Assembly: GCA_964623835.1 (NCBI GenBank)
Contig: CAZUVN010000002.1
Coordinates: 1-45,090 of the forward strand
From: an uncultured Candidatus Peribacteria bacterium
GTDB taxonomy: Bacteria; Patescibacteriota; Gracilibacteria; Peribacterales; Peribacteraceae
Length of the DNA: 45,090 nucleotides
Reading direction: 5' to 3'
Part shown: positions 9,583 through 39,493 of the stretch, one piece after another
How the letters are laid out: each line of letters opens with the position of its first letter
Numbering within the stretch: position 1 is the stretch's first letter
Notes under the pieces: model-generated
Seen by the model: only the letters and a program-made list of their open reading frames with translations
Told to the model about the DNA's origin: nothing
Databases searched by the model: none
Made by a program: the position numbers and the translations under genes

Positions 9583-9765
9583 ATAGATTAAGTATTGGAA
9601 TGGATACGTGCCCACATTGTACGCGTTGAATAATTACATTCCCATTGCGGCATATCCACATAGTAGATCACCTCTACTTTAGCAAAGAATAATCGTGCCA
9701 AGCCCCCTTTTCATTTCATACATCTTCTGCTACCGTCAAAGAGAACTGATTTCCGTCTTTTTCTC

Positions 9766-11115
9766 ATGTCTCAGCCCCTTTTCCGCACTCCCCGTGGTAC
9801 CAATGACCTCCTTCCGGAGGATCACCAATATCACACGTATATAAAGAAAGCTGTGCGTCATCGCGCACGTCAGGCAGGTTTCAAACGCATCGACCCGCCG
9901 GTGTACGAAAATCGTGCGATTTTTGAGCGCGGCATCGGTGAACATACGGATATTGTCGAAAAAGAACTCTTCCTTGTTACATCGAAACAGAAGAGTGATG
10001 ACGCGGCAGAGCTTGCCCTTCGTCCCGAATTTACTGCCGGTATTTGCCGTGCATATGTGGAGCACGGCATGCAGCAATTACCTCAACCGGTGCAACTCTA
10101 TTCGATCGGTCAGTGCTTCCGCCACGACCGTCCGCAGAAAGGACGCTACCGCCAATTTCACCAGTTCGACTTTGAAATGATCGGCTTGAAAGATGCGTCG
10201 CTGGATGCGCAGCTGATTCAGGTGATTGTCAAAATACTCGACGATCTGCGCATTATGGACAGACTGACGCTGCAGATTAACAACGTTGGTAATGCGGAAA
10301 ACCGCAAAGAGTTTTGTCAGGCATTGAAAGATTTCTTCATTGGCAAAGAGCGAAACCTTCCCGAGCTCGATCAGAAGCGACTTCAATACAACCCTCTTCG
10401 CCTGCTCGATTCCAAAGAGGAAGACACGCAGATTCTATTGAAAAACGCACCCAAGTTGGAACAGTTCGTCGATGACGAATCGCGCGCGTACCACGAGACC
10501 GTTCTGGAGTACCTCGAAGCGCTGGATATCAAGTACGTTAAAAACGAAGGACTTGTCCGAGGCCTCGATTACTACAATCAAACCGTGTTCGAGTTGTGGG
10601 ACAGTTCGACCGGCGCACAGAACGCCGTTGGGGGAGGTGGTCGCTATGACAGCCTTATTGAGCTCTTTGGCGGTCATTCAACACCGGGACTGGGCGCTGC
10701 ATGCGGCATGGAACGCATTATCTGGCACATGAAAGAAGCCGGCATTCAAGCCCCGAACAAAGACCAGGTTGATGTGTTTGTTGCGCAGCTGGGACCGGAG
10801 GCAAAGAAAACCTGCTTGAAGCTGATTACGGACCTGCGTGAAATGGGTGTTCACACCGTGGGAGCCCTTGGCGAAGCAAGCCTGAAGAGCCAAATGCGTT
10901 TGGCCGACAAGTTTGAAGCGCGATACACACTGCTACTGGGCAAGATGGAGGTAAAGGACGGCACCATTATTCTGCGCGATATGAAAGCCGGTAAGCAGAA
11001 GCAGATTCCGTTCAAGGACACACTGAAGACAATCAAGAAGTTGCTTGGCGAGAAGAACTTGGATACGTATTCGCTGACCGATCACATGGGCAACATCATT
11101 GATCAGGGTGAATAA
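9766..11115 (+). CDS. hisS: Histidine--tRNA ligase
   Basis: 449 aa with class II aaRS HisRS motifs: RGTNDLLP, LRPEFTAGICRAY, QCFRHDRPQKGRYRQFHQFDFE, GGGGRYDSL. Confidence 0.95.
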   Translation: MSQPLFRTPRGTNDLLPEDHQYHTYIKKAVRHRARQAGFKRIDPPVYENRAIFERGIGEHTDIVEKELFLVTSKQKSDDAAELALRPEFTAGICRAYVEHGMQQLPQPVQLYSIGQCFRHDRPQKGRYRQFHQFDFEMIGLKDASLDAQLIQVIVKILDDLRIMDRLTLQINNVGNAENRKEFCQALKDFFIGKERNLPELDQKRLQYNPLRLLDSKEEDTQILLKNAPKLEQFVDDESRAYHETVLEYLEALDIKYVKNEGLVRGLDYYNQTVFELWDSSTGAQNAVGGGGRYDSLIELFGGHSTPGLGAACGMERIIWHMKEAGIQAPNKDQVDVFVAQLGPEAKKTCLKLITDLREMGVHTVGALGEASLKSQMRLADKFEARYTLLLGKMEVKDGTIILRDMKAGKQKQIPFKDTLKTIKKLLGEKNLDTYSLTDHMGNIIDQGE

Positions 11116-19094: not shown

Positions 19095-19124
19095 TTGCTG
19101 TTTGGCGCAAACGGAAGGTACACT
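19095..19124 (+). promoter_or_regulatory. Promoter of the GT39/PMT-like gene (leaderless geometry)
   Basis: TTGCTG (19095-19100), 18 nt, TACACT (19119-19124), ccgcatc (7 nt), ATG 19132. Confidence 0.5.
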
Positions 19125-19131
19125 CCGCATC

Positions 19132-20637
19132 ATGCGTTTTCCGTCTCTCACGACAGCCGATTCACAGCCGATGCGACTATCGATTCTCTTCCTGCTCGCA
19201 CTCTCCTACTTCACCTACGTCCATGGATTCTGGAATCCGCCGGCTCTCTTTTGGGACGAGAATTATCACATCGCCTCTGCGCAGAAATATCTGAATGGCG
19301 TCTATTTTATGGAACCGCACCCGCCGCTCGGAAAACTGGTGATTGCAGCCGGTGAGTGGCTGATTAATGCGAATCCGCAAGACAATCAATTTATAGGAAC
19401 CGACTACGCGACCAATCCTCCGGAAGGATTTTCGTTTACCGGCTACAGACTGTTCCCGACACTGCTCGCATGGCTGACGACGCCGATTATTTTCGGCATC
19501 TTCTTCCTGATAACGCGTAAGCATCTTTGGTCGGTGCTGCTCAGTTTCCTCTATGTATTTGATAACGCTCTCATTGTTCATAGTCGATCGGCGATGCTGG
19601 AGTCGACATTGATGTTCTTCAGCGCTTTGGCGGTTTTTGCGTTCCTGCTGTTAATTGAATGGAAAGAGGATAAGAAGAAGTTCGGACGCGCGGCGTTACT
19701 GTTTGGCGCGTCATTCGGCGCGGCACTGGCTACGAAAGTGTTCGCACTGCTGTTCATACTGCTTGTGCCCGCGTTGCTGGTCTTCTTGTGGCCCAATATC
19801 AAACGCTGGTGGACCTTTGTCTGGATGGCAGCGCTCGCGTTTATGATCGTGTATGTAGGCGTATGGCACATACACTTCGCCAGCGGAAGCACGGTCAATC
19901 CGTCGCTGCCCGATGCCGGGTACTACCAAGCATCGCCCGAGTACAAAGCGATTCTCACCAACCGCCAGAACAAATCGGTTTTCGCGATTCCCTACATGCT
20001 CCGCGACTCACTCAACTTCGTCTCCCATTACCAGGCAGGCGTACCGCGGCTCGACTTATGTAAGGCGGATGAAAACGGCAGCCCGTGGTTCCTGTGGCCA
20101 TTCGGCGGTCGCACCATCAGCTACCGTTGGGAAACGCCGGATAGCAACGCCTATCGATATCTGTATCTTGTACCGAACCCCACAATCTGGTTCCTCGGCA
20201 TTGCGGGCGTCGGCATGAGCGCGGTCTTGCTGATCGCATCGGTGCTGTATCCCGGCGCCGTTCACCTACGCAGAAAGTTGCATATTGCGTTATTCCTCGG
20301 TCTGTACGTCAGCTACATGGCGGCCGTTTCGACCATCGACCGTGTGATGTACTTGTATCATTATTTCCTGCCGCTCTTCTTCACCTTCATCTTGGTTGGC
20401 CTTGTGTTCGATGAACTGCAGCAATTCTCCGTGTGGAAGCTAACCGAGAAGCGCAAGACCTATGCGCTGCTCACAGTAGCCGTGCTGATTTTCCTCAACT
20501 TCGAATATTTCCGTCCGTTCTCGTATTACGGCCCGTTGACCAGTGAGCAGTTTGAGAAGCGCAACTGGATGCAGATTTGGGATATGCATTGCGTCAACTG
20601 TGAAAGAAGTAGCCCGTTCGTGGTTGAGACACGATAA
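19132..20637 (+). CDS. GT-C fold polyprenyl-phosphate-sugar-dependent glycosyltransferase (PMT / GT39-like)
   Basis: Start taken at MRFPSL (ATG 19132) on promoter geometry. Motif FWDENYHIASAQKYLNGVYFMEPHPPLGKL (the DE loop typical of PMT-type enzymes). Many TM segments. Confidence 0.85.
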   Translation: MRFPSLTTADSQPMRLSILFLLALSYFTYVHGFWNPPALFWDENYHIASAQKYLNGVYFMEPHPPLGKLVIAAGEWLINANPQDNQFIGTDYATNPPEGFSFTGYRLFPTLLAWLTTPIIFGIFFLITRKHLWSVLLSFLYVFDNALIVHSRSAMLESTLMFFSALAVFAFLLLIEWKEDKKKFGRAALLFGASFGAALATKVFALLFILLVPALLVFLWPNIKRWWTFVWMAALAFMIVYVGVWHIHFASGSTVNPSLPDAGYYQASPEYKAILTNRQNKSVFAIPYMLRDSLNFVSHYQAGVPRLDLCKADENGSPWFLWPFGGRTISYRWETPDSNAYRYLYLVPNPTIWFLGIAGVGMSAVLLIASVLYPGAVHLRRKLHIALFLGLYVSYMAAVSTIDRVMYLYHYFLPLFFTFILVGLVFDELQQFSVWKLTEKRKTYALLTVAVLIFLNFEYFRPFSYYGPLTSEQFEKRNWMQIWDMHCVNCERSSPFVVETR

Positions 20638-20657
20638 TAGCTTTCAGGAATCAGGAG

Positions 20658-21038
20658 TCAGCTTTTGTAAACTGCTTGATTGCGTTTCATGTTTCCAATC
20701 ATCGAATTCAGCATTTTTCCAATTTCCTGAAGAAGATTTTCAACCTTGGTAAAGTCGCAATTTTTTGTATGCGGCAACTCTTTTGCTAGGCACATCTGTG
20801 CCTGAATCTCCATATGAGAAGCATATGCAATGTATAGGAATCTAATAAAATCTTTTTTACTGCCTCTATGTCTACCTTCTGCAATATTCGACAGAACTGA
20901 AATAGATGCTCGTCTCATTTGATCGATCAATCCAAACCGCTCTGTTGAAGGAAAATTTTCAGTCAGTTCATATATAGCAACTGACATTTGTAGAGCGCGT
21001 TGCCAGACAATAAGATCTCGAAAAGATTGTATAGCCAT
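20658..21038 (-). CDS. Four-helix-bundle protein (23S rRNA intervening-sequence protein family)
   Basis: MAIQSFRDLIVWQRALQMSVAIYELTENFPSTERFGLIDQMRRASISVLSNIAEGRHRGSKKDFIRFLYIAYAS is the family signature. Start taken at ATG 21038. Two sampled 60-nt lines give about 42% GC, lower than the neighbouring genes. Confidence 0.85.
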   Translation of the reverse strand: MAIQSFRDLIVWQRALQMSVAIYELTENFPSTERFGLIDQMRRASISVLSNIAEGRHRGSKKDFIRFLYIAYASHMEIQAQMCLAKELPHTKNCDFTKVENLLQEIGKMLNSMIGNMKRNQAVYKS

Positions 21039-21143
21039 AACCTCCACTCTAGAGATATCTATCGATAAATTCCGCTTTAGTGATTTAAAGCGGTGAAGCG
21101 TTTTCGACTTGACTCCTGAAAGCTAAAAGCTAACTCCTAGTTC

Positions 21144-21830
21144 CTACATCTTCGCCGTCCTCAACCCCCACAACTCTTTGAACATCCGGATAATCACCTT
21201 CACCGATCCGCCCGTCGGCGTTCCCTTTGTCCGCGGGTAGTGCGGTACATCGACGGTATACCAAGGAATCCCCTTCCGTTTCAGACGCAAAAACATTTCG
21301 GTATTGAAGAGCTTTTCCACGCCGTGTGTCGGGCGGATCTCTTTCCAGACATCGCGGCGGAATAATTTAAGACCGCAATTCACGTCGCGAACCCAGAGCC
21401 CAAGCACGATGTAGTTCATGCCACCAAGAATCTTTCCGAACATGTTGCGAATGAGCGGATCAGCTCTGTGTGCTCGTCGCCCTGTTACAAACGCAAAGCG
21501 ATCGATATGCGGCAACAGCAATGACAGATCCGACGCGTGGAATTGTCCGTCGCTGTCCATGAACGCAATCAGGTCCGTGGTCGCAGCATCGCATCCCGAA
21601 CGAACCGCTACACCATATCCTCCATTCTTCTGATGGGTAACGATTTTTAAATTATCATGTTTTTTGGCAAGGTCTTTCAAGATCTGCGGCGATCTATCTT
21701 TCGATCCGTCGTCAACGACAATAATCGTGCCGTCGATCGACGCATTGCTCATCCACGACGCTACGTCGCGAATGGCAGCTTCGATATTTTCTTCTTCGTT
21801 ATAACAGGGAAGGATGACGGAGAGTTTCAT
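21144..21830 (-). CDS. Family 2 glycosyltransferase, Dpm1-like polyprenyl-phosphate sugar synthase
   Basis: MKLSVILPCYNEEENI and IIVVDDGSKDRS, a DSDGQ DxD region, and 228 aa without a TM tail. Confidence 0.88.
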   Translation of the reverse strand: MKLSVILPCYNEEENIEAAIRDVASWMSNASIDGTIIVVDDGSKDRSPQILKDLAKKHDNLKIVTHQKNGGYGVAVRSGCDAATTDLIAFMDSDGQFHASDLSLLLPHIDRFAFVTGRRAHRADPLIRNMFGKILGGMNYIVLGLWVRDVNCGLKLFRRDVWKEIRPTHGVEKLFNTEMFLRLKRKGIPWYTVDVPHYPRTKGTPTGGSVKVIIRMFKELWGLRTAKM

Positions 21831-21886
21831 TGGAGTGAATCGTACAGGTAGACGGAATTATCGGCTACACAAGAAGTACGTGTAAT

Positions 21887-23158
21887 TCAGGAGGGCGCAA
21901 AAGCGGCGATCATCAATAAAAATGCCGCACTCGAAAAAACGAGCGTCAGACAAAGAAAGCCATGAATAAATCGTAAGACATGTCTTTCTGTTCCGATTCC
22001 CATAACCATATAGACGGTCCATGGGAGCGCAAGCGCAATGGAGAAGCGGAAATCCTGACATGCACTAAAAGGCATGGCGATGCGATAGGCAAAAGCGCCG
22101 AGCAATAACACAACGGCCGTTATCGCTACTGGCGCTGTTTGAGAAGATGAAAGAAAGCGAAGATCGTAAGCTAAGCGATAGAGAGCAAGAATAGAAAGGA
22201 GCAATGCACTGATGAGAATCGTAACTGCAATGGGAATAAATCTGGGTGGAAACTCGAATTCACCGAAGAACGCAGAACGGAAAAAATATTCCCAGTGATA
22301 CAGTCGTCGTGCCCCGTCTCCGTCTATGTGATTGAAGGGGTGTTTAAGAATCTGAACCGGATTGAAGGTCAACAGATATTCCGGCGCACTGGAAATTTCA
22401 CCGGTTTGTATGTCCGCATTTCCCACGAGCACCGTCCTCATTTTATCCTCCTCGAAAAAACGCGGAATCTGGAACCATCCGGATAATGCAAAGGGAATAA
22501 CAAAGAGAAGCAAAACGAACGTGATTTTTTTACGGATTGATACATTTTTTGCCACACAAAGTGTCAGAAATGCAATCGGCATCCAAAGGATCATGTTGCT
22601 TTTAGAGATGAGACCCAAACCGATGACAACACAAACAAGAATCCAGTGCTTCATGATGCGATCCCTCCACCAAATTAAAAGTGATGCGAATGCGAGAAAC
22701 GCAAAAAAATGATACAGCGTGTCATTGTTGATGCGTGCACTGAAGAATACAACGCTTGGGAAAGCGCCGAGAATTGCGATAAAAAGCAACCGTTCCATCC
22801 GCTGCATTTTTGGAAACAATAGGTTGGCAGACAGGAATCCGATACCGAGTGTGATGATTGAGAGTAATAGTCCAAAATACTGCAGGATTATCTCTTTATT
22901 CAAGACCGGATTCACATATTGAACCGCACGTACTATTGCGGAACCAACAAAATAATAGAGAGGAGGTTGATAGAACTCGAAGCCGTCATGAGGGGGAGGA
23001 ATGGACCAATCTCGCAACACGTAATCGATATATTCAACGTGTCCCCATGCATCATGACCACGCAAATCAAACGGTGTGACAGAGAGATACGCGACGCGGA
23101 GAGCGATCGCGATACAAAATACGACGATGACCAGCATGAAGTCAGAGTTCTTCCGCAT
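21887..23158 (-). CDS. GT-C fold membrane glycosyltransferase (ArnT/PMT_2-like)
   Basis: Motif HDAWGHVEYIDYV...FYQPPLYYFV followed by about 10 TM segments. Start taken at M26 (ATG 23158) because TGCTACCAT lies 6 nt upstream. Other in-frame ATGs exist at 23188 and 23233. Confidence 0.78.
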   Translation of the reverse strand: MRKNSDFMLVIVVFCIAIALRVAYLSVTPFDLRGHDAWGHVEYIDYVLRDWSIPPPHDGFEFYQPPLYYFVGSAIVRAVQYVNPVLNKEIILQYFGLLLSIITLGIGFLSANLLFPKMQRMERLLFIAILGAFPSVVFFSARINNDTLYHFFAFLAFASLLIWWRDRIMKHWILVCVVIGLGLISKSNMILWMPIAFLTLCVAKNVSIRKKITFVLLLFVIPFALSGWFQIPRFFEEDKMRTVLVGNADIQTGEISSAPEYLLTFNPVQILKHPFNHIDGDGARRLYHWEYFFRSAFFGEFEFPPRFIPIAVTILISALLLSILALYRLAYDLRFLSSSQTAPVAITAVVLLLGAFAYRIAMPFSACQDFRFSIALALPWTVYMVMGIGTERHVLRFIHGFLCLTLVFSSAAFLLMIAAFAPS

Positions 23159-23164
23159 AAGCAA

Positions 23165-23179
23165 ATGGTAGCATACACT
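23165..23179. promoter_or_regulatory. Back-to-back divergent -10 boxes serving two GT-C genes
   Basis: Minus strand: TGCTACCAT (23165-23173), then 6 nt to ATG 23158. Plus strand: TACACT (23174-23179), then 7 nt to ATG 23187. Confidence 0.45.
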
Positions 23180-23186
23180 GTGCCGC

Positions 23187-24767
23187 ATGACGTCACGCTC
23201 TTCACGATCGATCATCAGCAAACTCATCGACACCGTGAAGATGAATTACGACGTCGTGTTCTTATTGATACTCGGCATCATCGTTCGCGTGTGGGCATTC
23301 GGTGATATCCCGCCGGGACTGAATCAGGATGAGGCGGCGACCGGATACGATGCATGGTCGGTGCTCCGATATGGCGTTGACCGCAACGGCTTTCCGTTTC
23401 CAGTGATGTTCGTCTCGTGGGGATCGGGCATGTACGCATTGAACGGATATCTTGCATGGCCGTTCATGCTCCTATTTGGCTTAAGCGAAGCATCCATTCG
23501 CATGCCGCATCTCACGCTCGGCATTGTCTCACTGATTCTCTTCTTCCACCTCGTTCAACGAGTCGTCGATCGGCCGACAGCAGTGACTGCTCTTCTGCTG
23601 ATCGCCATTAACCCGTGGCACATCATGATTTCGCGCTGGGGACTCGATTCCAACATTTTCCCGGGCATGTTTCTGATCGCGGTCTTTCTTCTGATCCTCT
23701 CTTTAAAGAATAGCCGCTATCTTCCGTGGTCGGCCTTCGTGCTCGGACTCTGTCTCTATCTATACGGAACTGCCTACGTCGTCATCCCGATCTTTACTGT
23801 TCTCGCTGCAATTGCACTGACGTTCTTCTGGAAAACCCAATGGTCGACTCTTGGCATCTCCGCTGTTGTCGCTGTTGTGACAGGGATCCCAATTGCGCTC
23901 TACATCGCAATCAACCAGTTCCAGTGGAACTCTATTATTCTACCGTTCATAAGCATTCCACGACTCACCGGAACCCCGCGTTTTCAGACAGTCTCGAGTG
24001 TTTTCAGCGGAGACTGGGGCAGCATTATCAACAACCTTCGGGAATTCTGGAAACTACTTTTTTATCAGCATGACGGATTAATCTGGAATGGAATTGAAGG
24101 ATACGGACAGATATATATGATCGGACTGCCTTTTGTGATCATCGGTATCGTTGCTGCGTGTATACGAGTGTGGAAAGCACGCGGAAAAGATCCGGCAATC
24201 TTCCTGCTTTTTTGGCTGATCTCCGCTACCGCACTTGCCGCGTTGCAATCGGTCAACGTCAACCGCATTAACGTGATCTACATCGCATTGATCTTTTTCT
24301 GCGCACTCGGCGTACAGACAGTTGCATGGGGAAATCGATTTGTCCGCGACGGTATTCTCAGCGTTTTTCTGGTTCTCTTTTCCTTCTTTACGTATTCGTA
24401 CTTCACACAATACCGCGCCGAGGCGTCCGATGATTTCTTCACCGGTCTCGGCACGGCAATCACCGATGCATTGGACGCAACCGACGGCAAAGTCTGCGTA
24501 ACCGATCGCGTGAATATGCCATACATTTTCGCGCTCTTTTACGAGCAAACTGATCCCCGATTATTTGCGGAAACCGTTCAGTACGATAATCCCGGAGCGG
24601 AATTTCAGTGGGCAAATCGATTCGGACGATTCACGTTCGGATTGCATCGATGCAGAGATGAATCGTTTGATGCATTCGTCATTCATGTCGATGAACTCGA
24701 TGAATTTGACGATGGACGCTACGATATACATATCTTCGATCACTACGCATCAGCTATTCCTCTCTGA
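23187..24767 (+). CDS. GT-C fold membrane glycosyltransferase (GT39/ArnT-like)
   Basis: Motif DIPPGLNQDEAATGYDAWSVLRYGVDRNGFPFPVMF, followed by many TM segments and a soluble C-terminal domain. Confidence 0.85.
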   Translation: MTSRSSRSIISKLIDTVKMNYDVVFLLILGIIVRVWAFGDIPPGLNQDEAATGYDAWSVLRYGVDRNGFPFPVMFVSWGSGMYALNGYLAWPFMLLFGLSEASIRMPHLTLGIVSLILFFHLVQRVVDRPTAVTALLLIAINPWHIMISRWGLDSNIFPGMFLIAVFLLILSLKNSRYLPWSAFVLGLCLYLYGTAYVVIPIFTVLAAIALTFFWKTQWSTLGISAVVAVVTGIPIALYIAINQFQWNSIILPFISIPRLTGTPRFQTVSSVFSGDWGSIINNLREFWKLLFYQHDGLIWNGIEGYGQIYMIGLPFVIIGIVAACIRVWKARGKDPAIFLLFWLISATALAALQSVNVNRINVIYIALIFFCALGVQTVAWGNRFVRDGILSVFLVLFSFFTYSYFTQYRAEASDDFFTGLGTAITDALDATDGKVCVTDRVNMPYIFALFYEQTDPRLFAETVQYDNPGAEFQWANRFGRFTFGLHRCRDESFDAFVIHVDELDEFDDGRYDIHIFDHYASAIPL

Positions 24768-24775
24768 TTCCGTTT

Positions 24776-26638
24776 ATGCGCTTGTCCGACTTCATCACCA
24801 AGCCACGCTGGAACGCGGCATTCATTGCGGAGATATTTATCGGATTGTTCCTGATTAGTGCCGGTCTCGCGAGCATTCTCTCACTTGGCATGCGCGACAT
24901 GAGCGCAAGCTACCAGTATGACGGCATGGAACCTCATGAAACCTCCATCCCTTTTCTTGCTGAGGGCGAAGGATCGTACTTCAACATTACTGCAACGTTC
25001 AGAATGAATCCGCTGCACGCGAGTTGGTTCGTCATCGGACCTGATGATTGTATTGAAGAGCTCATCGTGAATGACCAGTCGGTAGACGGTGTAACCAGCC
25101 TCTGCAATTTTCATCCTGGACGCGTTGTCCGTCTTCCGCTGCAATCCGGAGAAAACACGATCTCGATGCGCATTCACGACACGGGCGGACAAGGGGGTCT
25201 GATGCTTCGCACCTCTTGGACCGATCCCCTGCTGCTCTCTCTGCTTGTATTCATCCTAGCGCTCATTAGCTGGATCGGTGCACGTCTGATGCTGCTGCGT
25301 CCGGCATCCGCAAACATTGCTCTGTTTCCCGCAGTTCTTGCGATAGCCTTCGTGATCCGCCTGGGACTTTCGTGGCACGGCGGTTTTGGCGGTGACATCA
25401 GCTTGAATCAGGATTGGTCCAAGAGCGCAGTCAAACTGGGACTCATTCAATCGTATAGCGAGCAGGTCGATGACGATGTGATGCTGCCGAACTATCCCCC
25501 ACTCTCCATCGGCATATTCGCGCTGACCGGCTACCTCTATCAATCGACGCTTTCACCGGACTTCGATGAACAAGCACCGATCTATCGTGTCATCATCAAG
25601 TTGCCCGCCATCCTCGCCGACCTTGTGACGGTCGTTGTGCTGTATCTGATACTGCTACCGATAGGCGGGCGGCGGCAATCATTTCTTGCTGCGTCACTGT
25701 ACGCAATTCATCCGGCTGTCATCCACGATTCCGCAGTGTGGGGACAGATCGACAGCGTCTTCACGCTGTTCCTGTGTCTGACCATCCTTTGTATGCAGCG
25801 TCATCGCTGGATATGCGCCGGCATATTGATGGCATCGGCACTGCTGATAAAAATGCAGTCGCTCCTGCTGGTGCCGGTTGTCGTGGTTGCCGCGGGGTTT
25901 GATATCAAGCGCTGGCTACGGTTGCTACTGGGCGGTTTAAGTGTCACGTTCATTACCGCGATCCCATTTGCGATCTACGGTGCGTTCGACAAATTGATGA
26001 ATGTCTATATGGGGTCCGTCGGCTTCTATAACACACTGAGCTACAACGCCTACAACTTCTGGGTCATGCTCTACACGCGCGAGACGGGGAAATCCGCAAC
26101 AGATCTATTTGTGGGTCCATTGTCTCATCGCATGTTCGGGCTCATTGCCTGGTTTATCGTCATTGTCAGCGTCACCGTGCTGTGGTTTCCGGCCATTCAA
26201 CAGGACATTAAATCTAAAGGAAAAACCGGCGTCACGATGTTATCTGCCGCACTGATCGCCTATGCATTCTTCCTCTTCAACGCGGAAATGCACGAGCGCT
26301 ATCTGTTCCCTTTCATAGCGCTAGGCTTACCGCTCCTCCTGCTCGATCGAAAATCAGTCATTCTCTACATCAGTGCATCCATCCTCTTCACGCTGAATTT
26401 AGTATCCCTTGTCGCATTCGGGGACATCGATCGGATACTCCTGCAGGAAATATTCAAAGAGGCCCACCCGGTCGCAATCGCAACGGCGAATATGATTGTC
26501 TTCGCGTGTGTGTGGGTTTTTGCCCATTCTTACCAGAAATCAACCGTAAAGAACGCACATAGCTGGAAGACTCTCTTTCCCCGATTCCGTGCCAGGACAA
26601 CAAGATGGAACCTTTTGCGTTGGCCGTTTCTCCGGTAG
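24776..26638 (+). CDS. GT-C fold membrane glycosyltransferase (DUF2029/GT87-like) with an extra N-terminal extracytoplasmic beta-rich domain
   Basis: Motif MLPNYPPLSIGIFALTGYLY in a polytopic core. The N-terminal ~150 aa (YFNITATFRMNP...ISMRIHDTGGQGGLMLR) looks like a jelly-roll/CBM-type module (inference). Confidence 0.8.
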   Translation: MRLSDFITKPRWNAAFIAEIFIGLFLISAGLASILSLGMRDMSASYQYDGMEPHETSIPFLAEGEGSYFNITATFRMNPLHASWFVIGPDDCIEELIVNDQSVDGVTSLCNFHPGRVVRLPLQSGENTISMRIHDTGGQGGLMLRTSWTDPLLLSLLVFILALISWIGARLMLLRPASANIALFPAVLAIAFVIRLGLSWHGGFGGDISLNQDWSKSAVKLGLIQSYSEQVDDDVMLPNYPPLSIGIFALTGYLYQSTLSPDFDEQAPIYRVIIKLPAILADLVTVVVLYLILLPIGGRRQSFLAASLYAIHPAVIHDSAVWGQIDSVFTLFLCLTILCMQRHRWICAGILMASALLIKMQSLLLVPVVVVAAGFDIKRWLRLLLGGLSVTFITAIPFAIYGAFDKLMNVYMGSVGFYNTLSYNAYNFWVMLYTRETGKSATDLFVGPLSHRMFGLIAWFIVIVSVTVLWFPAIQQDIKSKGKTGVTMLSAALIAYAFFLFNAEMHERYLFPFIALGLPLLLLDRKSVILYISASILFTLNLVSLVAFGDIDRILLQEIFKEAHPVAIATANMIVFACVWVFAHSYQKSTVKNAHSWKTLFPRFRARTTRWNLLRWPFLR

Positions 26639-30842: not shown

Positions 30843-32597
30843 TTACCACTTCTGCCACGGCATCTCGATCTGATCGAGAGGAACGTCGTCGATGGAGTCG
30901 GCAATCTTCTCGCCTGCCACTTTCGCAACCAACGAGTGAAGATTCTTCCGGAAGACGAAAGCCATGACCGCTGCAAGTCCGAAGAGTCCGGCCATCACAC
31001 TTACGGTGACAAACGGGAATGACTCGATCATGGTTGCAGGAGCAGCGCGCTTCAGCTCGGTACAGTCCGGACCGCAATCCTCGCCACCGTCACACTCCTC
31101 ACTTTCATCAATCACGCGGTCACCGCAGCGTGCCGCACGACAATCCATACGACAGGAATTTGCTTTGCTGTCGGAATTGTCGCGACCGTTGTCGCACTCT
31201 TCCTTTGAACTGAGCAAGCCGTCGCCGCAGGTCGGAACCTTGCAGAGCGTCGTACAACTGTCGTCATTGTTATCGTTTCCATCGTCGCAGTATTCACCAG
31301 GCTGCAGCAATCCATCGCCACATTTGGGCTTTTTACATTCAACGGAGCACGAGTCATTATCGCTCTGGTTTCCGTCATCACACTCCTCCTGGCCTTCGCG
31401 GACACCGTTGCCACACAGAGGGAGCTTGCACAGGTTATTACAGCCGTCTGTATTTAAGCGATTACCGTCATCACACTCCTCACCGGCAGCAATTTGCAGA
31501 ACGCTATCGCCACAACGGGCCATAATGCACTGGTTCGTACAGGCATCCGTATCAACCTTGTTGGCATCGTCACATTCTTCGCCAAGTTGAACCACACCGT
31601 CGCCGCAGGAAGGCAGCGTACAGGTATTGGTACATCCATCGCTTCCGACAAGATTTCCATCATCGCACTGCTCTCCCAAAGCAATCTGCACGATCTGGTC
31701 GCCGCAGCGCGGGTTCTTACACGCGTTCGTGCAAGAATCATTGTTCATCTGGTTTCCATCGTCACATTCCTCTCCACTCTGAACGCTTCCGTCACCGCAA
31801 GCAGGAGACTTACATGTATTGCTACAGGCATCCGTGTCGATGCGATTGCCGTCGTCACACTGTTCCCAGATAGCGACGAGTCCGTCTCCACACTGAGCGA
31901 TGCGACAGGCATTGGTACAAGCATCTGTATCGACCTTGTTCGCATCATCACACTGTTCACCGGTATCGATCACGCCGTTTCCACAGATGTTCTGCCCTGC
32001 ATTAGTCTGACCTGCAGTTGATGTCGTTTGACCCGAAGCCGTCGCAGCGGCAGACGACTTCGATTGAGATGCCAGTGTCAGCTGTTGCGCTGAGTTGGTG
32101 GATGATGCAGCGCAGGCAGGCAGGAAATTGCGCTTGCAGCCGCCGGAACAGACGCCGTCTTTGTCACACGTCGGAACCGTACAGATCGCACCGCAGGACG
32201 GCGCAAGGTAGCGTGTCTCAATGATTAACTCGCCAGTCGCAGGATCCAATGCATACACTTCTTCAGACTCCGGTTCACATTCTTCTTTGAGGGCCGGAGA
32301 AATAAGTCCGTCACCGCAGAAAAGCTGCACACAGTCTTTGGTGCAGTTACTGAATCCGTTTTTGGTACTTCCCAAATCACATTCCTCTCCCGCATCAACA
32401 ACTCCATTACCACACATCAGTGACCGGCTGCTGCTTGATGCGGCTTTCACCGGACAACCCGATGTCCCGTACGCCTTACCGACACAGTCGGATATGAGAT
32501 CCGCACTAAATGCTCCGCTGGAGAGCGCGACAACCGCCGCCATTGCCGTGAGGCCGAGTACCGACAGGGTTGTATAGGAGGGTGGGTGTTTGTTCAT
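30843..32597 (-). CDS. Secreted, C-terminally TM-anchored protein made of Myxococcus-type cysteine-rich repeats (CGDG...EECDDGN...D.C...C)
   Basis: Signal peptide MNKHPPSYTTLSVLGLTAMAAVVALSSGAFSA. Two N-terminal repeat units and ten tandem ones. TM segment FVTVSVMAGLFGLAAVMAFVF, followed by a 35-aa tail. Confidence 0.85.
   Translation of the reverse strand: MNKHPPSYTTLSVLGLTAMAAVVALSSGAFSADLISDCVGKAYGTSGCPVKAASSSSRSLMCGNGVVDAGEECDLGSTKNGFSNCTKDCVQLFCGDGLISPALKEECEPESEEVYALDPATGELIIETRYLAPSCGAICTVPTCDKDGVCSGGCKRNFLPACAASSTNSAQQLTLASQSKSSAAATASGQTTSTAGQTNAGQNICGNGVIDTGEQCDDANKVDTDACTNACRIAQCGDGLVAIWEQCDDGNRIDTDACSNTCKSPACGDGSVQSGEECDDGNQMNNDSCTNACKNPRCGDQIVQIALGEQCDDGNLVGSDGCTNTCTLPSCGDGVVQLGEECDDANKVDTDACTNQCIMARCGDSVLQIAAGEECDDGNRLNTDGCNNLCKLPLCGNGVREGQEECDDGNQSDNDSCSVECKKPKCGDGLLQPGEYCDDGNDNNDDSCTTLCKVPTCGDGLLSSKEECDNGRDNSDSKANSCRMDCRAARCGDRVIDESEECDGGEDCGPDCTELKRAAPATMIESFPFVTVSVMAGLFGLAAVMAFVFRKNLHSLVAKVAGEKIADSIDDVPLDQIEMPWQKW
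31059..31985 (-). repeat. Coding tandem array of ten ~31-aa Cys-rich units
   Basis: Residues 205-513. Example units: CGDGLVAIWEQCDDGNRIDTDACSNTCKSPA and CGDGSVQSGEECDDGNQMNNDSCTNACKNPR. Confidence 0.85.
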
Positions 32598-34381: not shown

Positions 34382-36850
34382 ATGTCGACCTTCTTGCTTC
34401 TGATCGGCTCGGTTCTCGGCATTGCATGTGCCGTCTATGCCCTTGCCGCATACGCAAGACGGTCTGCCGATCGCACTCGCGAGGAGGATCTCGTGTTCCT
34501 GCAACTGCTGGTACCAAAGAAGGAGTCCCGCGAGGAAAAGGACGCCGATACCGATCAGCTTGGAAAAGATTATAAAGAAGTAATCGGTGTCATGGACCAC
34601 CTGTATCAGTCACTGCACGGACTGTATAACGGCTCGATGAACCGGTACTGGACCGGGCAACCGTTCATCTCGTTGGAATACGCGGCGCTCGCGAATGAGA
34701 TCCTGTTCTTTGTCGTCTGCCCGCGCTCGATTGCCCCACTCATTGAGAAGCAAATCACATCGTTTTATCCGGACACGGTGATTGATGAGGTGGAGGACTA
34801 CAACATCTTCACAAATGATTCCGTTGTTGCAGCCAAAAGCCTTTTTGCCAGCAAGCCGTTCACGGCTGTCTTTAAAACGTACCAGCAATTGAAGAGCGAT
34901 CCTCTCAATGCAATCACGAACGCCTTCTCCAAATTGCAGAGTGATGAAGGCGCAGCAGTGCAAATCATTCTGCAACCGGCAAAACCGGGTTGGCAGAGCA
35001 AGCTTCAGCAGGAAGCAAAAGATCTGCTGAATGGAAAATCCGGTGGAGGATCCTCATGGCTGAATCCACTGACATGGGTGCGCATGATCGTCGATCTGTT
35101 TACATCCGGAGGACCGTCTGCAGATACACCGAAGAGCGAGCGCGTTTCACAAATGGTGGAGGAATACAGCAAGGCTGTTGATGAAAAAGCCGGCAATCCC
35201 GGGTTCACGGCCGTCATCCGCGTCGTGTCATCGGCAAAGAATCCGTCTCGTGCGCAGATGATTCTGGATACCGTTCTGGGCGGTTTCAGTCAGTTCAACG
35301 ATGTCCGCGGCAACGGGTTCAAGACGGTGATGTTCGATTCGAAAGCTAAAACAGTCCGCCGTTTCATCCGCCGTTCTCCGCGTCGCATTCTGCGTGAATG
35401 GCTGCAGGCACCGCTGATGCTCCTCGGCACCACCGAACTGGCATCACTCTTTCATTTGCCGCACACCAAGTACAACAAGGTAGAGACGATCAAATGGCAG
35501 AACTTCAAAGTCGCTCCCGCGCCAAAGAATCTGCCTGAGGATGGATTGTATCTGGGTACCAATACCTATCGCGGTGAGAAGAAAAAGATTTTCATGCATG
35601 ACGAAGACCGCTTCCGTCACTTCTATATCATTGGTCAGACCGGTACCGGTAAGTCGTCCATTATTCAGCTGATGGCGCGGCAGGATCTTCATAATGGAAA
35701 GGGTATGTGCGTGGTCGACCCGCACGGTTCGTTGATTGACGATCTCTTGCCGTACATTCCTCGCGAGCGCGCAGATGATGTGATTTTCTTTAACCCCGCA
35801 GATACCGAGCGTCCGATGGGTCTGAACCTTCTTGAAGGAAAGACCGAAGAAGAGCGCGACCTTATTGCGCTCGATGCGATGAACATGATGGTGAAGATGT
35901 TCGGCGAAGAAATCTTCGGTCCGCGCATTCAGGACTACTTCCGTAACGGCTGTCTTACACTGATGGAAGATGAGGAAGAAGGCGGTGCCATTACCGACCT
36001 TGTCCGCCTCTTCACCGACGACGAATGGCAGAAGTACAAAGTCGCCAAGGTGAAAAACCCGATCGTGAAATCCTTCTGGGAAAACCAGATGGCAAAGACC
36101 GGTCAACGCGAGAAGCAGGAGATGATCCCCTACTTTGCCGCGAAGTTCGGACAGTTCGTCACCAACACGCTGATTCGCAATATCGTCGGCCAGACGAAGA
36201 GCTCGTTCGATGTTGCGGAATGCATGAATAGCAACAAGATCATTTTGATGAACCTATCCAAGGGTCTCATTGGTGATATCAACTCCACGCTGCTCGGTAT
36301 GATTGTGGTGAATAAAATTCAGGTCGCCGCCATGCGTCGTCAGCGAATGGAAAAAGAAGCGCGCAAAGACTTCTTCCTCTACATCGACGAGTTCCAAAAC
36401 TTCGTGACGCCGAGCATCGAATCGATTTTGTCTGAGGCTCGTAAGTACCGCCTCGGCTTGATTCTTGCACACCAGTACATCGATCAGCTGGAAAAAGAGA
36501 GTAAGCTTGCGGGATCTGTAAGCTTGAAAGGCGCGATCTTCGGAAACGTCGGAACGATGATGATGTATAAGATCGGACCACAGGATGCTGAAGTCGCCGT
36601 CAAAGAAATGGCACCGGTCTTCAGCGAACAGGATCTGGTGAACATGGATGCATTTAAGGGCGCCATGAAGCTGTGTGTGAACGGTCAGCCAAGTCGCCCA
36701 TTCAGCATCGAAGTCCCTCGGCCCTGGCTTGAGAAGTCCTACACAAAAGATGAGCAGGCTGCAGAAGCATTCAAGCAGCTGAGTCGATTGAAGTATGGAC
36801 GTCCGAAAGAGTTTGTAAATAGAGAGATCTTGAGACGTATTGGGGCGTAA
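34382..36850 (+). CDS. VirD4/TraD/TraG-like (type IV coupling protein-like) membrane-anchored P-loop ATPase
   Basis: N-terminal TM segment MSTFLLLIGSVLGIACAVYALAAY. Walker A FYIIGQTGTGKSS. DPHGSLIDDL. Walker B FLYIDEFQNF. ARKYRLGLILAHQY. 822 aa. Confidence 0.8.
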   Translation: MSTFLLLIGSVLGIACAVYALAAYARRSADRTREEDLVFLQLLVPKKESREEKDADTDQLGKDYKEVIGVMDHLYQSLHGLYNGSMNRYWTGQPFISLEYAALANEILFFVVCPRSIAPLIEKQITSFYPDTVIDEVEDYNIFTNDSVVAAKSLFASKPFTAVFKTYQQLKSDPLNAITNAFSKLQSDEGAAVQIILQPAKPGWQSKLQQEAKDLLNGKSGGGSSWLNPLTWVRMIVDLFTSGGPSADTPKSERVSQMVEEYSKAVDEKAGNPGFTAVIRVVSSAKNPSRAQMILDTVLGGFSQFNDVRGNGFKTVMFDSKAKTVRRFIRRSPRRILREWLQAPLMLLGTTELASLFHLPHTKYNKVETIKWQNFKVAPAPKNLPEDGLYLGTNTYRGEKKKIFMHDEDRFRHFYIIGQTGTGKSSIIQLMARQDLHNGKGMCVVDPHGSLIDDLLPYIPRERADDVIFFNPADTERPMGLNLLEGKTEEERDLIALDAMNMMVKMFGEEIFGPRIQDYFRNGCLTLMEDEEEGGAITDLVRLFTDDEWQKYKVAKVKNPIVKSFWENQMAKTGQREKQEMIPYFAAKFGQFVTNTLIRNIVGQTKSSFDVAECMNSNKIILMNLSKGLIGDINSTLLGMIVVNKIQVAAMRRQRMEKEARKDFFLYIDEFQNFVTPSIESILSEARKYRLGLILAHQYIDQLEKESKLAGSVSLKGAIFGNVGTMMMYKIGPQDAEVAVKEMAPVFSEQDLVNMDAFKGAMKLCVNGQPSRPFSIEVPRPWLEKSYTKDEQAAEAFKQLSRLKYGRPKEFVNREILRRIGA

Positions 36851-36864
36851 TACTGTTTTTCTCT

Positions 36865-36888
36865 GCCTGAATCACCTGTTGTTCAGGC
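36865..36888 (+). terminator. Weak hairpin after the VirD4-like gene, overlapping the convergent gene's stop codon
   Basis: GCCTGAA-(10 nt)-TTCAGGC followed by TCCTTTC. The stem is only 7 bp. Confidence 0.35.
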
Positions 36889-38328
36889 TCCTTTCAGATA
36901 ATGCTTAGCATATTGATTCTTAATAGGATGCTGATCTGACATTTGCAATATCATTTGCATCTTGTCCTTATGCCCATATTTCCTATCTTGAATTCGCTGT
37001 GATTTTCTTCGAATTGAATTAAGTGTTGTCTCAGTACCGGTTGCTAAAACCGTGCACTCAAGATTTGCTCGTAAAAATTTTGAAATCATCTCGGGACTAT
37101 TTACATCTTCAGTTGAACCAAATTCCATAAAGACACGAGCTAATGTTAGACACTTTGAAATTGAAGTCGTCCAGAGGAATGGCTGATTTTCCATTAACGA
37201 AATTATGTCTAGTGACGATTGTGAAACTACTTTCAGCCTCTTAAACAGGAGAATACGTCGATCAATATTCTCAAAAGTAAGATTAAATATTCCCGGAATA
37301 TCTTCTAGAAGGCCCACGGGACTGCAAAATCCGCGGCATTTTAGTCCATTAATTTTTTCATCAAGATACACAAAAGTATAAGAGGCAATCGCAGGATGTA
37401 CTATAAACATAGACACCGGATCTTTAAAGCCGCGATCTTTTAATCCCTGTATCTTTTTATCAATATTCTCAATAGATAATCCAAAGAATGTCGGCGATTT
37501 TGTTATGAGTTTAACTGGGTCTATAAATCCTCTGCTTGTTAGTTGCTCAATTTTTTCATGAATACTCTCAAGGCTATAGCAAACAAATGTAGGGTGCTGC
37601 GAAAGAAGTTTTATAGGATCTTTAAAGCCACATTTTCTCAATCCATCAATCTTACTCCTTAAAGCGTCAACATCATTCCCGAGAATCGAAGGTTGCTTTA
37701 CTACTAATTTGAGAGGATCAGCAAACCCAATTTCTTTTAATAGAGCCATTTTCTCATAAATAGTTTCGGACGAATAATTGAGTAATGAGGGATGTCTTTT
37801 AATAATATGCGCAGCATTTTGAATGCCAATTTCTCTTAGAGCTGTAATCTTCTTATCGATTGTTTCTAATGATAAAGAAAGGATTGATGGAGCCCTAGCG
37901 ATCAGTTGAATGGGATCCGCAAAGCCACGTTTTTTAAGCCCCTCAATAGTCTCGCTAATATTTTGTAATGATAAACCAAGAACAATTGGATGCATTTCGA
38001 TAATTTTGTGCGGATCCTTAAAACCGCAACTTTGTAAAAATACGACTTTTTGAACCAAATTTTCAGTTGAATATCCGAGAACTGCAGAGAATGATTCGAT
38101 TAATAAATATGGATTTTGAAATCCTAATTCTTGAAGAGTACTGATTGTTTTTTCCAATGATCTTACACGTGTTAGGTTTGGATCAGCTTTTTGCAAAGCA
38201 TCTGCAAATTTTTCAGAGAAACCCCTCTGAATCAAGAATGTGCGTCTAGCTGCAATAATATTTTCAGCGGTTTCGCCGGGAGGGAAAACTGTACCTAAAT
38301 GCCGCTGATATAGAGACCCGTTTTCCAT
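36883..38328 (-). CDS. mTERF-like helical-repeat protein (ten 33-aa repeats plus a ~117-aa basic C-terminal region), encoded in an AT-rich island
   Basis: Start taken at MENGSLYQ (ATG 38328), one nt after the sortase TGA (38332-38330). Repeat consensus [RCI]GF.DP..L....P.IL..S.E.I..KI..L+.. Two sampled 60-nt lines are 33% GC, against 50-58% in the flanking genes. No signal peptide. Confidence 0.8.
   Translation of the reverse strand: MENGSLYQRHLGTVFPPGETAENIIAARRTFLIQRGFSEKFADALQKADPNLTRVRSLEKTISTLQELGFQNPYLLIESFSAVLGYSTENLVQKVVFLQSCGFKDPHKIIEMHPIVLGLSLQNISETIEGLKKRGFADPIQLIARAPSILSLSLETIDKKITALREIGIQNAAHIIKRHPSLLNYSSETIYEKMALLKEIGFADPLKLVVKQPSILGNDVDALRSKIDGLRKCGFKDPIKLLSQHPTFVCYSLESIHEKIEQLTSRGFIDPVKLITKSPTFFGLSIENIDKKIQGLKDRGFKDPVSMFIVHPAIASYTFVYLDEKINGLKCRGFCSPVGLLEDIPGIFNLTFENIDRRILLFKRLKVVSQSSLDIISLMENQPFLWTTSISKCLTLARVFMEFGSTEDVNSPEMISKFLRANLECTVLATGTETTLNSIRRKSQRIQDRKYGHKDKMQMILQMSDQHPIKNQYAKHYLKGA
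37237..38226 (-). repeat. Coding tandem array: ten in-register 33-codon units (990 nt)
   Basis: ORF-track residues 47-376. Example units: RGFADPIQLIARAPSILSLSLETIDKKITALRE, CGFKDPIKLLSQHPTFVCYSLESIHEKIEQLTS and RGFIDPVKLITKSPTFFGLSIENIDKKIQGLKD. Confidence 0.85.
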
Positions 38329-38329
38329 A

Positions 38330-39493
38330 TCATCGCGCCGCCACCTCGCTAACCGGCGCCGCATGAACTAGGTAACGCTGATCGATCGAATCTGGCGGCC
38401 AGCAGGTGTAGAGAATCAACTCTTCACCGCGACCTCCTTGATACGCCGAGAAGTCTTTGTCATCGACTGCGCGTTTGTGCGTGACCTGATACGTGTGAAC
38501 TTTGCCTCCGTATGTGACATAAATTTTATCGCCGATGCTGAGCTTGTTGATCTGGCGGAAGATCTTCGTGTAGTTGGATACATCCCATCCGTAGCTGGAG
38601 CTGTGACCGTAGACGAGAATGGTCCCACCGGCACCGGGATAGCTGAACAAGTGACCCACTCCGTACTTCAGCGGTGCAAGCAATCCATCAGACGTTGTCG
38701 GGTTGGACGGATGTGTGATTGTCAGATCTTTGATTCCGAGCGATGGAAGAGTGATAGCAAAGGCTTTGTTGGAAGCTTGTGGTGCGGTTGTTGTTGAAGT
38801 TGTCGTTGTTGTCGGACGCGCGGGGGTCGGCGTTGCCTGCGCGACGTAGGTTGGGCGTGGCTGTGCTGGACGATTAACTGCAGGTGCCCGGGCTGGCGCT
38901 GGCGCCTGTGCAACAACCGGACGAATGACAACAGGGGCGGGCTTAGGTTGATGGCTGATGGCAATCTGTTCCGGCTTCTCGACACCCGTTGAAGACATCA
39001 TCGCAAACAGGCTCTGTTTGCTGACCGGCATTCCAAGGCGAATGGGCGATGGCAATTGCACTCCTCCTTTTACGGCGGCATTTAGGGCACCGCTGAACCA
39101 ATCTCCGTCCGTGGTATTCAGATCACTCAGTGTATCGGGGCGCTTGCGAGCATTAGTGCGGGCAATCAGCACAATCGCCTCTTCTTCGGCCAACACATCA
39201 CCAGGGCGGAACCGTCTGTCGGCATTTCCCGTAATAATTCCCGCCTCAAAAGCCGTCTCAATATACGGTGCGTACCACTGGTCGTAGTCGAGATCGTCGA
39301 ACAGCGGCATCGGCGGTGGATTCTTGATGTAGTGCTGCAAACGCTGCTTTAAGACGGAATCCGATTCAACAATCATCGCGACGGCTCCGGCGCGGGAAAT
39401 CGGCTCATTGGACGGTAATTCTGCGGCGAATGCCTGGGTCATAAACCCGACCAGCAGAACAAGCACGGTGAGGAGGATGAACCGCTTTTCCAT
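38330..39493 (-). CDS. Sortase-family transpeptidase with an N-terminal SLH-like module and a Pro/Thr-rich linker
   Basis: Signal/TM segment MEKRFILLTVLVLLVGFMTQAFA. SLH-like FDDLDYDQWYAPYIETAFEAGIITGNADRRFRPGDVLAEEEAIVLIAR. Sortase catalytic triad context ILVYGHSS, LILYTCWP and QRYLVHA. Confidence 0.85.
   Translation of the reverse strand: MEKRFILLTVLVLLVGFMTQAFAAELPSNEPISRAGAVAMIVESDSVLKQRLQHYIKNPPPMPLFDDLDYDQWYAPYIETAFEAGIITGNADRRFRPGDVLAEEEAIVLIARTNARKRPDTLSDLNTTDGDWFSGALNAAVKGGVQLPSPIRLGMPVSKQSLFAMMSSTGVEKPEQIAISHQPKPAPVVIRPVVAQAPAPARAPAVNRPAQPRPTYVAQATPTPARPTTTTTSTTTAPQASNKAFAITLPSLGIKDLTITHPSNPTTSDGLLAPLKYGVGHLFSYPGAGGTILVYGHSSSYGWDVSNYTKIFRQINKLSIGDKIYVTYGGKVHTYQVTHKRAVDDKDFSAYQGGRGEELILYTCWPPDSIDQRYLVHAAPVSEVAAR

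Follow-up and report, generated by a model that had tools for sequence, protein, structure and literature searches.

The closest described systems are the pTERF proteins, which were introduced in "Systematic discovery of DNA-binding tandem repeat proteins" (Nucleic Acids Res 2024) as prokaryotic mTERF-like proteins of 3-11 tandem units (PMC11417379). Of these, pTERF1 from a Clostridia metagenome-assembled genome (MAG) binds ACTNNNAGTC with a dissociation constant (Kd) of 1.87 nM and pTERF2 binds another double-stranded DNA (dsDNA) motif, the Kd being nanomolar for both; according to the authors pTERF1 is without the conserved proline of the family (PMC11417379). The same study reports 46 pTERF homologues, mostly from Bacillota, and leaves Patescibacteria unmentioned (PMC11417379). 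The human organellar protein MTERF1 is built of eight 33-residue motifs of three short helices each, with a conserved proline that caps the central helix; its superhelix tracks dsDNA over a footprint of 22 bp in which these prolines line the major groove, and R162, R202, R251, R350 and R387 make direct base contacts (PMC4705650). Plant-centred reviews and family surveys still call mTERFs absent from prokaryotes (PMC12977773). Here we report a gene for a ten-unit mTERF-like protein in a 45-kb stretch of DNA (45,090 nucleotides, hereafter the window, contig CAZUVN010000002.1) from an uncultured Candidatus Peribacteria bacterium. The gene and its parts are as follows.

36883..38328, minus strand: the mTERF-like gene, 481 codons plus a TGA stop at 36883-36885, with its start ATG at 38328.
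38227..38328, minus strand: N-terminal leader, residues 1-34, placed by alignment with homologues, with a conserved Arg-Arg at residues 28-29 before the first GFS motif.
37237..38226, minus strand: ten 33-residue mTERF units, residues 35-364, in exact register, unit 1 being degenerate.
36886..37236, minus strand: C-terminal module, residues 365-481, made of one or two degenerate mTERF-like units and a basic three-helix tail, conserved in family alignments.

The open frame that contains the gene runs over 36883..38364 on the minus strand. From the sequence we preferred the start ATG at 38328 over the upstream ATG at 38364, because the leader then has the same length as in the homologues P0002 and P0003, with Arg-Arg at residues 28-29. 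A preliminary description of this DNA, made from its letters and open reading frames (ORFs), had stated that the protein has no signal peptide. Hydropathy bears this out, showing neither a hydrophobic N-terminus nor a membrane segment (KD19 maximum 1.33 overall and 0.25 in the first 40 residues).

We found that the dipeptide G[FI] recurs at 0-based positions 35, 68, 101 and onwards to 332, which gives ten units with no indel. Identity at a lag of 33 residues was 0.333, compared with 0.067 ± 0.014 in 2000 shuffles (z = 18.7). A 99-nt period is also detectable in the DNA of the gene, and a hidden Markov model (HMM) of the unit recovers nine full units in the window protein. Unit 1 is 9-21% identical to the other units, while units 2-10 share 21-52% identity with one another as protein and 36-61% as DNA. 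The preliminary description had spoken of ten exact 33-residue repeats; this is right for the number of units, their register and their period, and wrong for their sequences. Since the units are divergent at both the protein and the DNA level, the array is, judged by its sequence, old. Following the array is a C-terminal module of about 115 residues, often ending in KRYFRGYP, which is present in 80 of the 151 top family representatives together with 1-10 recognisable units. No relative of this module was found in Pfam, NCBIfam or PDB sequence searches, and by its distribution in the sequences it is specific to the 33-residue bacterial subfamily.

The reading of these repeats as mTERF motifs, proposed in the preliminary description, was upheld by both profile and structure comparisons. 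The window protein matches Pfam mTERF (PF02536) in three stretches with E = 8.2e-30 and 104.2 bits against a cut-off of 23.1. The homologues P0001-P0004 carry the same domain in precomputed annotation, and a sequence search of the PDB leads to MTERF3 (3m66). An AlphaFold2 (AF2) model of the protein, computed from 14 family sequences, has a mean pLDDT of 87.7 and three helices in each unit, arranged as a helix of 7 residues, a proline, a short helix of 5 residues and a helix of 13. When this model was compared with the PDB by Foldseek, ranks 1-17 were all mTERF-family structures, including 3m66, the MTERF1-DNA complexes 3n6s and 3mva, MTERF4-NSUN4 and mitoribosomal mTERFs. The best E-values were 1.8e-5 for 3m66 and 2.1e-5 for 3n6s, with target-normalised TM scores of 0.52-0.68 for the MTERF1 and MTERF3 matches. 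The ranks after 17 are designed helical repeats with E > 0.1. TPR, Sel1, HEAT and PPR repeats were found neither in Pfam at E<=1 nor among the 32 Foldseek matches. By profile and by model, the window protein is thus an mTERF-fold alpha-solenoid and a member of the mTERF family. One trait of eukaryotic mTERFs is absent here, namely nuclear encoding and import into an organelle, as the gene lies on a bacterial chromosome fragment.

Homology to transcription activator-like effectors (TALEs) was considered and rejected. The whole-protein profile hits the TALE-like BurrH weakly (E = 1.3e-4, with no single stretch significant), and this hit is lost with a clean two-unit profile at E<=1. There is also no TALE structure among the 32 Foldseek matches, and the units have three helices, not two. 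The best PDB sequence match of the profile was 8VD6, a "CAP repeat". This is a de novo design (PMC12339374) and is uninformative on ancestry. As an observation in its own right, this 33-residue ProteinGenerator design matches the bacterial mTERF unit profiles with E = 2e-9 (A1) and 1e-5 (A4) over four units in register, and from these matches it seems that a unit of the natural mTERF type was recreated by design.

The window gene belongs to a known kind, the prokaryotic tandem mTERF-like proteins, of which both tested members bind DNA. Like pTERF, the window protein is bacterial and MAG-only, has head-to-tail three-helix units, gives a good AF2 solenoid and carries no catalytic domain; it shares with pTERF the prokaryotic origin and the strictly tandem arrangement, here of ten three-helix units in exact register. 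The two differ in period, since the identifier of pTERF1 (MBQ3414883.1), TR_35_C32_2, suggests 35 residues, compared with 33 in the window protein. Unlike pTERF1, the window protein has a clear Pfam mTERF score and comes from a family in which 90% of the units carry the proline. Its C-terminal module also differs from that of the pTERF kind and of period-35 relatives. What is new is a distinct, larger and more regular 33-residue branch, from another phylum and with its own C-terminal module; it is set beside pTERF1 by description. The preliminary description had taken the gene as a candidate for an undescribed function in this lineage; bacterial mTERF-like proteins as such are already described, the pTERF proteins having been published as sequence-specific dsDNA binders in 2024 (PMC11417379). 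By analogy, the window protein probably works as pTERF does, different arrays recognising different dsDNA motifs.

MTERF1 (PDB 3MVA, 3N6S) shares with the window protein the 33-residue three-helix motifs, the groove-lining proline and the fold (Foldseek E = 2e-5, TM up to 0.68). It differs in being a nuclear-encoded organellar protein with eight irregular, non-tandem motifs, no sequence periodicity and 15-20% identity to the window protein, which in turn lacks a transit peptide and combines a regular array with small residues at the aligned contacts and a different C-terminal module. MTERF3, MTERF4 and the plant mTERFs have the same fold, and MTERF3 is the best match in both sequence and fold. 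These proteins serve conserved organellar housekeeping (rRNA, ribosome assembly, intron splicing), whereas the window gene is an accessory, patchy insertion. The TALE and TALE-like proteins (AvrBs3, BurrH/Bat, STAR) resemble the window family in their tandem 33-35-residue helical units, variable unit number, flanking degenerate units and two specificity-type hypervariable positions near a helix start. However, TALE units have two helices and a di-residue at positions 12 and 13, whereas units of the window family have three helices and variable positions 13 and 15 that are split by the proline.

An exhaustive HMMER scan of 1.84 billion representatives gave 1056 clusters at E<=1e-3, of which 326 remain at E<=1e-10 and 66 at E<=1e-30, compared with just 5-8 relatives recovered by word-indexed protein searches. 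The preliminary description had called the family essentially eukaryotic and rare in bacteria; the 326 clusters at E<=1e-10 and the relatives in Patescibacteria MAGs contradict this. The 33-residue period is present in 97 of the best 151 proteins. Among titled genome records, relatives occur in MAGs labelled Patescibacteria group, Moraniibacteriota or Saccharibacteria, in one unclassified bacterium, and in a short contig that had been binned as Gammaproteobacteria. Unit number differs two-fold between relatives whose termini are 62-69% identical. Our literature search found no paper linking mTERF with taxa of the candidate phyla radiation (CPR). No NCBIfam model matches the window protein, and PADLOC gave no meaningful hit to defence proteins, its single match being one of 16 bits over 35 residues to AgaR.

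Several hits at the edges of the family deserve mention in their own right. One candidate, P0033 (5975 aa, E = 7e-69), was set aside. It consists of about 50 near-identical units of about 118 residues, all 50 matched stretches fall in the C-terminal part, the best of them corresponding to query residues 361-412, and its score is probably an inflation by repetition and not homology. The proteins P0113 (L024 8001-10619), P0169 and P0152 have 36-residue near-identical mTERF units after a long non-repeat N-terminal region, and one of them lies on a contig with very sparse short ORFs that looks eukaryotic; the top of the HMMER list probably mixes bacterial and protist proteins. Short members of about 195-220 aa occur in genomes of 58-62% GC from soil and rhizosphere metagenomes (L016-L021), and the family may extend past typical Patescibacteria. 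The contig binned as Gammaproteobacteria (L009, 9 kb, 36% GC) encodes a member with the CPR-type C-terminal module beside a cohesin-domain protein, and is either a binning error or a case of transfer outside the radiation. In a gut anaerobe (L026 2799-7822, L027 1604-6627) we observed a period-35 mTERF-like gene, P0301, from a cluster of 777 sequences. The conserved same-strand order there is a sigma-70-type factor, two unknown ORFs of 307 and 509 aa, a 481-aa mTERF protein and a 130-aa mTERF ORF that overlaps its end. This arrangement hints at a transcription-related role of the period-35 branch.

We excised 781 ungapped units from the family with the unit HMM. Across the whole family many unit positions are equally variable, and the proline at unit position 14 is present in 90% of the units; the window protein has it in 8 of its units 2-10. 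The most recent variation was followed in 22 proteins with units that still share at least 55% identity. Variability in this subset was 0.48 at position 13 and 0.52 at position 15, compared with an average of 0.19 ± 0.08 at the positions other than these two and 0.08 at the proline between them; position 19 came next with 0.39. In 19 of the 22 proteins, position 13 or 15 ranked among the top three in variability. At positions 13/15, units 2-10 of the window protein carry F/A, H/I, A/S, H/S, Q/S, H/T, S/T, H/A and I/G.

We aligned the family with MTERF1 by two independent profiles, one of the whole protein and one of two units, and checked the chain numbering at six residues. In both profile alignments the family proline falls on the conserved MTERF1 proline. 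R202, F243 and R350 of MTERF1 align at the residue after the proline (unit position 15), R251 and Y288 at unit position 23, and F322 at position 18. R162, F243 and Y288 are reportedly the residues that stabilise flipped bases in MTERF1 (Yakubovskaya et al. 2010, together with the PDB entry titles). The variability and the alignment together place the latest diversification of the arrays on either side of the groove-lining proline, and in the alignment position 15 coincides with a base-contacting position of MTERF1. The window protein is also basic, with an isoelectric point (pI) of 9.2, which is the family median as well.

Our preferred reading, to which we give a probability of roughly 0.6 by analogy with MTERF1 and pTERF, is that the window gene encodes a sequence-specific dsDNA-binding solenoid that would sit in the major groove, with the residues flanking the proline setting specificity, and that would serve as a roadblock or regulator. 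The protein is a basic cytoplasmic solenoid of ten regular units followed by one or two degenerate units and the helical C-terminal module. Its superhelix would follow the major groove of dsDNA in the way of MTERF1 and pTERF, each unit lining the groove with its invariant proline. Which sequence is recognised would depend on the residues before and after this proline (unit positions 13 and 15), and to some extent on positions 18, 19 and 23. On its target site the protein would then be a roadblock to transcription or replication, or a regulator of either.

Several points weigh against this reading. The ligand does not follow from the fold alone, since some eukaryotic mTERFs bind RNA and others serve as protein adaptors. 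DNA binding by the window protein and its 33-residue subfamily is a prediction by analogy. The residues at position 15 of the window protein are small (A, I, S, S, S, T, T, A, G), as against Arg and Phe in MTERF1. The placing of positions 13 and 15 as putative base readers comes from the alignment and not from the concave surface of the model. The connection to the tested pTERFs is also indirect. Period-35, Firmicutes-like relatives of the window protein appear in the HMMER list at E 1e-18 to 1e-26 with another C-terminal module, one of them behind a sigma-factor gene in an anaerobe, and it is these that may be the published pTERF family. The genomic context gives no hint of a pathway: no conserved neighbourhood was seen at about 20 homologous loci, which are flanked by unrelated housekeeping genes, and no domain fusion in ten long family members, which carry the mTERF domain alone. 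Finally, the best homologue is merely 34-44% identical and the donor of the gene is unsampled.

The features next to the mTERF-like gene are the following.

34382..36850, plus strand: gene for a VirD4-like coupling ATPase (Pfam TrwB_AAD_bind and T4SS-DNA_transf), converging on the mTERF-like gene.
36851..36882, no strand: 32-nt spacer between the VirD4-like stop (TAA, 36848-36850) and the mTERF-like stop.
36865..36888, plus strand: small hairpin, GCCTGAA-10 nt-TTCAGGC, across the mTERF-like stop codon, read from the sequence.
38330..39493, minus strand: sortase gene with an SLH domain (Pfam Sortase and SLH), upstream of the mTERF-like gene.

The mTERF-like gene has a GC content of 36.4% and a GC content at third codon positions (GC3) of 28%, as compared with 51-56% and 56-71% in nine other genes of the window. 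It is the lowest-GC segment of 1446 nt in the whole window (z = -6.4). The preliminary description had called the gene compositionally foreign, which these figures confirm; its GC values for the two flanking genes, however, were roughly swapped, since the sortase gene has 55.3% GC (GC3 58.8%) and the VirD4-like gene 51.5% (GC3 62.9%). Family members elsewhere live in hosts of 28-62% GC and differ from their flanks by no more than about 8 GC points, mostly towards a somewhat lower GC content. Because these members track the GC content of their hosts, we take 36% GC as the mark of a donor and not as a trait of the family.

Three related assemblies keep the gene order of the window, and the junction is covered in two of them, GCA_044228075.1 (L004, 80% nucleotide identity to the window) and GCA_964433325.1 (L002, 73%). 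In both, the TAA of the VirD4-like gene directly abuts TTA, the reverse complement of the sortase stop, with zero spacer and no mTERF gene (L002 8753-8758; L004 15388-15393). In blastn comparisons with both assemblies, homology stops at 36851 and resumes at 38334. The extra segment in the window is about 1.48 kb and consists of the ORF, 32 nt 3' of its stop and 1 nt (38329) 5' of its start; it falls precisely into the zero-length gap between the converging VirD4-like and sortase genes. Since L004 is nearer to the window than L002, a single gain accounts for the pattern more economically than two losses. An independent Logan assembly (SRR15237806) crosses both junctions with 99.95% identity, which rules out a chimera of binning or assembly. 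We found no terminal repeats, target-site duplication or recombinase at the inserted segment, and no sign of carriage by a mobile element, as there were no family relatives in IMG/VR, GenBank phages or PLSDB plasmids and no fold match in BFVD.

The absence of the gene from two syntenic relatives and its GC3 of 28% in a background of 56-71% fit the horizontal acquisition suggested in the preliminary description, and the sequences make a gain as a single-gene insertion well supported. Syntenic orthologues of the same composition, which would have spoken for ordinary vertical inheritance, are not what the relatives contain: those with the same gene order have no mTERF gene. A low-GC member of the same radiation is the probable donor. 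At the 5' end, the sortase stop (TGA, 38332-38330) is followed by one nt and the mTERF-like start ATG (38328-38326), exactly as first described. Because the sortase stop lies only 1 nt before this ATG, the mTERF-like gene is probably co-transcribed with the sortase gene. The hairpin at the other end has an RNA fold of -11.9 kcal/mol (z = -2.05), with 8 of 200 shuffles folding equally well or better, and the terminator scan made no call there; tentatively, it is possibly a weak terminator of the converging VirD4-like gene.

Other explanations of the gene have to be weighed against this evidence, and each of them agrees less well with the comparative data than the dsDNA-binding reading. The protein could be an RNA-binding factor in ribosome biogenesis or RNA maturation, with rRNA, tRNA or introns of the bacterium itself as its target, in the manner of MTERF3, MTERF4 and the plant mTERF4/6/9. 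Its best sequence and fold match is indeed MTERF3 (3m66), MTERF4 and mitoribosomal mTERFs are also matched, the protein is basic, and rRNA introns are present in many CPR genomes. Close relatives should share a core factor of RNA maturation, however, and two syntenic relatives are without the gene at this site. The variable repeat number and the position-specific hypervariability suit diversified targets better than a conserved RNA, and the sole tested prokaryotic relatives bind dsDNA, so that we consider an RNA factor unlikely. A scaffold or adaptor that contacts other proteins and has no nucleic-acid ligand, a common role of helical repeat proteins, is very unlikely in our estimate. MTERF4 binds NSUN4 via its C-terminal part (4fp9 and 4fzv are among the fold matches) and the position-15 residues are small and uncharged, as such a role would allow, but the high pI is kept across the family, the homology is to the DNA-binding MTERF1 and pTERF kind, and no partner gene recurs beside family members.

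The protein might instead be an exported, TALE-like effector that acts on nucleic acids in the host cell of an episymbiotic CPR bacterium, its basic C-terminus serving as a type IV signal. The TALE-like architecture of a leader, a variable array of 1-10 units with a hypervariable residue pair, and a conserved C-terminal module would suit such a role, as would the sporadic distribution with horizontal transfer, the basic C-terminal tail and the VirD4-like coupling ATPase gene that the gene adjoins in the window. This adjacency is a product of the insertion, though, and other loci are flanked by housekeeping genes; the hydropathy check identified no secretion signal, and protein export by a CPR type IV system is without support. 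We regard an effector as quite unlikely. It is extremely unlikely, in our judgement, that the gene is no recent gain, being either an ancestral gene lost independently in the relatives or a decaying, non-functional passenger. Just two relatives cover the junction and the repeats are old and divergent, yet a GC3 of 28% in a background of 56-71% speaks against long residence, and the same zero-spacer junctions in two relatives of unequal distance favour a single insertion. Decay is also hard to reconcile with the confident fold and with an intact frame of 481 codons at such a stop-rich composition, the chance of which is about 4e-16. A bolder extension of the preferred dsDNA-binding reading, which we regard as doubtful and propose by analogy with TALEs, is that the 33-residue CPR subfamily is a natural programmable DNA-reading array, in which positions 13 and 15 would specify bases in a TALE-like manner and which would be reshuffled and transferred among Patescibacteria as accessory regulators or host-cell effectors.

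The window itself is a chromosomal fragment, as it encodes GyrB, HisRS, GlyRS, ribosomal protein S2, EF-Ts, YchF and ribonucleotide reductase, along with several PMT-type glycosyltransferases, a DUF4215 protein, the VirD4-like ATPase and the sortase. The named relatives of its S2 protein are from Candidatus Peribacteraceae, Peribacteria and Peregrinibacteria (69-76% identity), and because of these relatives the host is, by its S2 sequence, a Peribacteria-type member of the Patescibacteria (CPR).

Some of the neighbouring genes have features of their own. The sortase (38330-39493, minus strand) combines an N-terminal signal-like segment, an SLH domain and a long Pro/Thr/Ala-rich linker, followed by the catalytic domain, an unusual mix for CPR bacteria, and its C-terminal SEVAAR* is kept in the relatives. 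The VirD4/TraD-like ATPase (34382-36850, plus strand) has 822 aa; its relatives are annotated with a DUF8128 N-terminal region, and its gene stands alone in the window, without further type IV secretion genes in the vicinity. At 30843-32597 on the minus strand lies the gene for a protein of 584 aa with eight DUF4215 repeats (181 bits), which keeps this position in all three relatives. Four genes for membrane glycosyltransferases of the PMT, PMT_2 or GT87 type lie at 19102-26638 on both strands and are kept in the relatives L004 and L005. Beside HisRS there is an ORF of 388 aa (8449-9615, minus strand) with no Pfam match, in the second-lowest GC patch of the window (9001-10000; 42-44%).

What these results mean for the family is that CPR bacteria hold a much larger and more regular 33-residue branch of mTERF proteins, with at least 80 clusters at 50% identity among the top 150 hits, and that this branch moves horizontally as a single gene. 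The recent variation at the residues flanking the proline leads to a testable hypothesis of a recognition code in a compact, well-folding scaffold, a matter of interest to the engineering of DNA binders. It also has a bearing on the ways in which ultra-small symbiotic bacteria control their own functions or those of their hosts. If the idea of a programmable array were true, a large and regular bacterial mTERF branch would reopen the question of where the eukaryotic organellar mTERFs originated.

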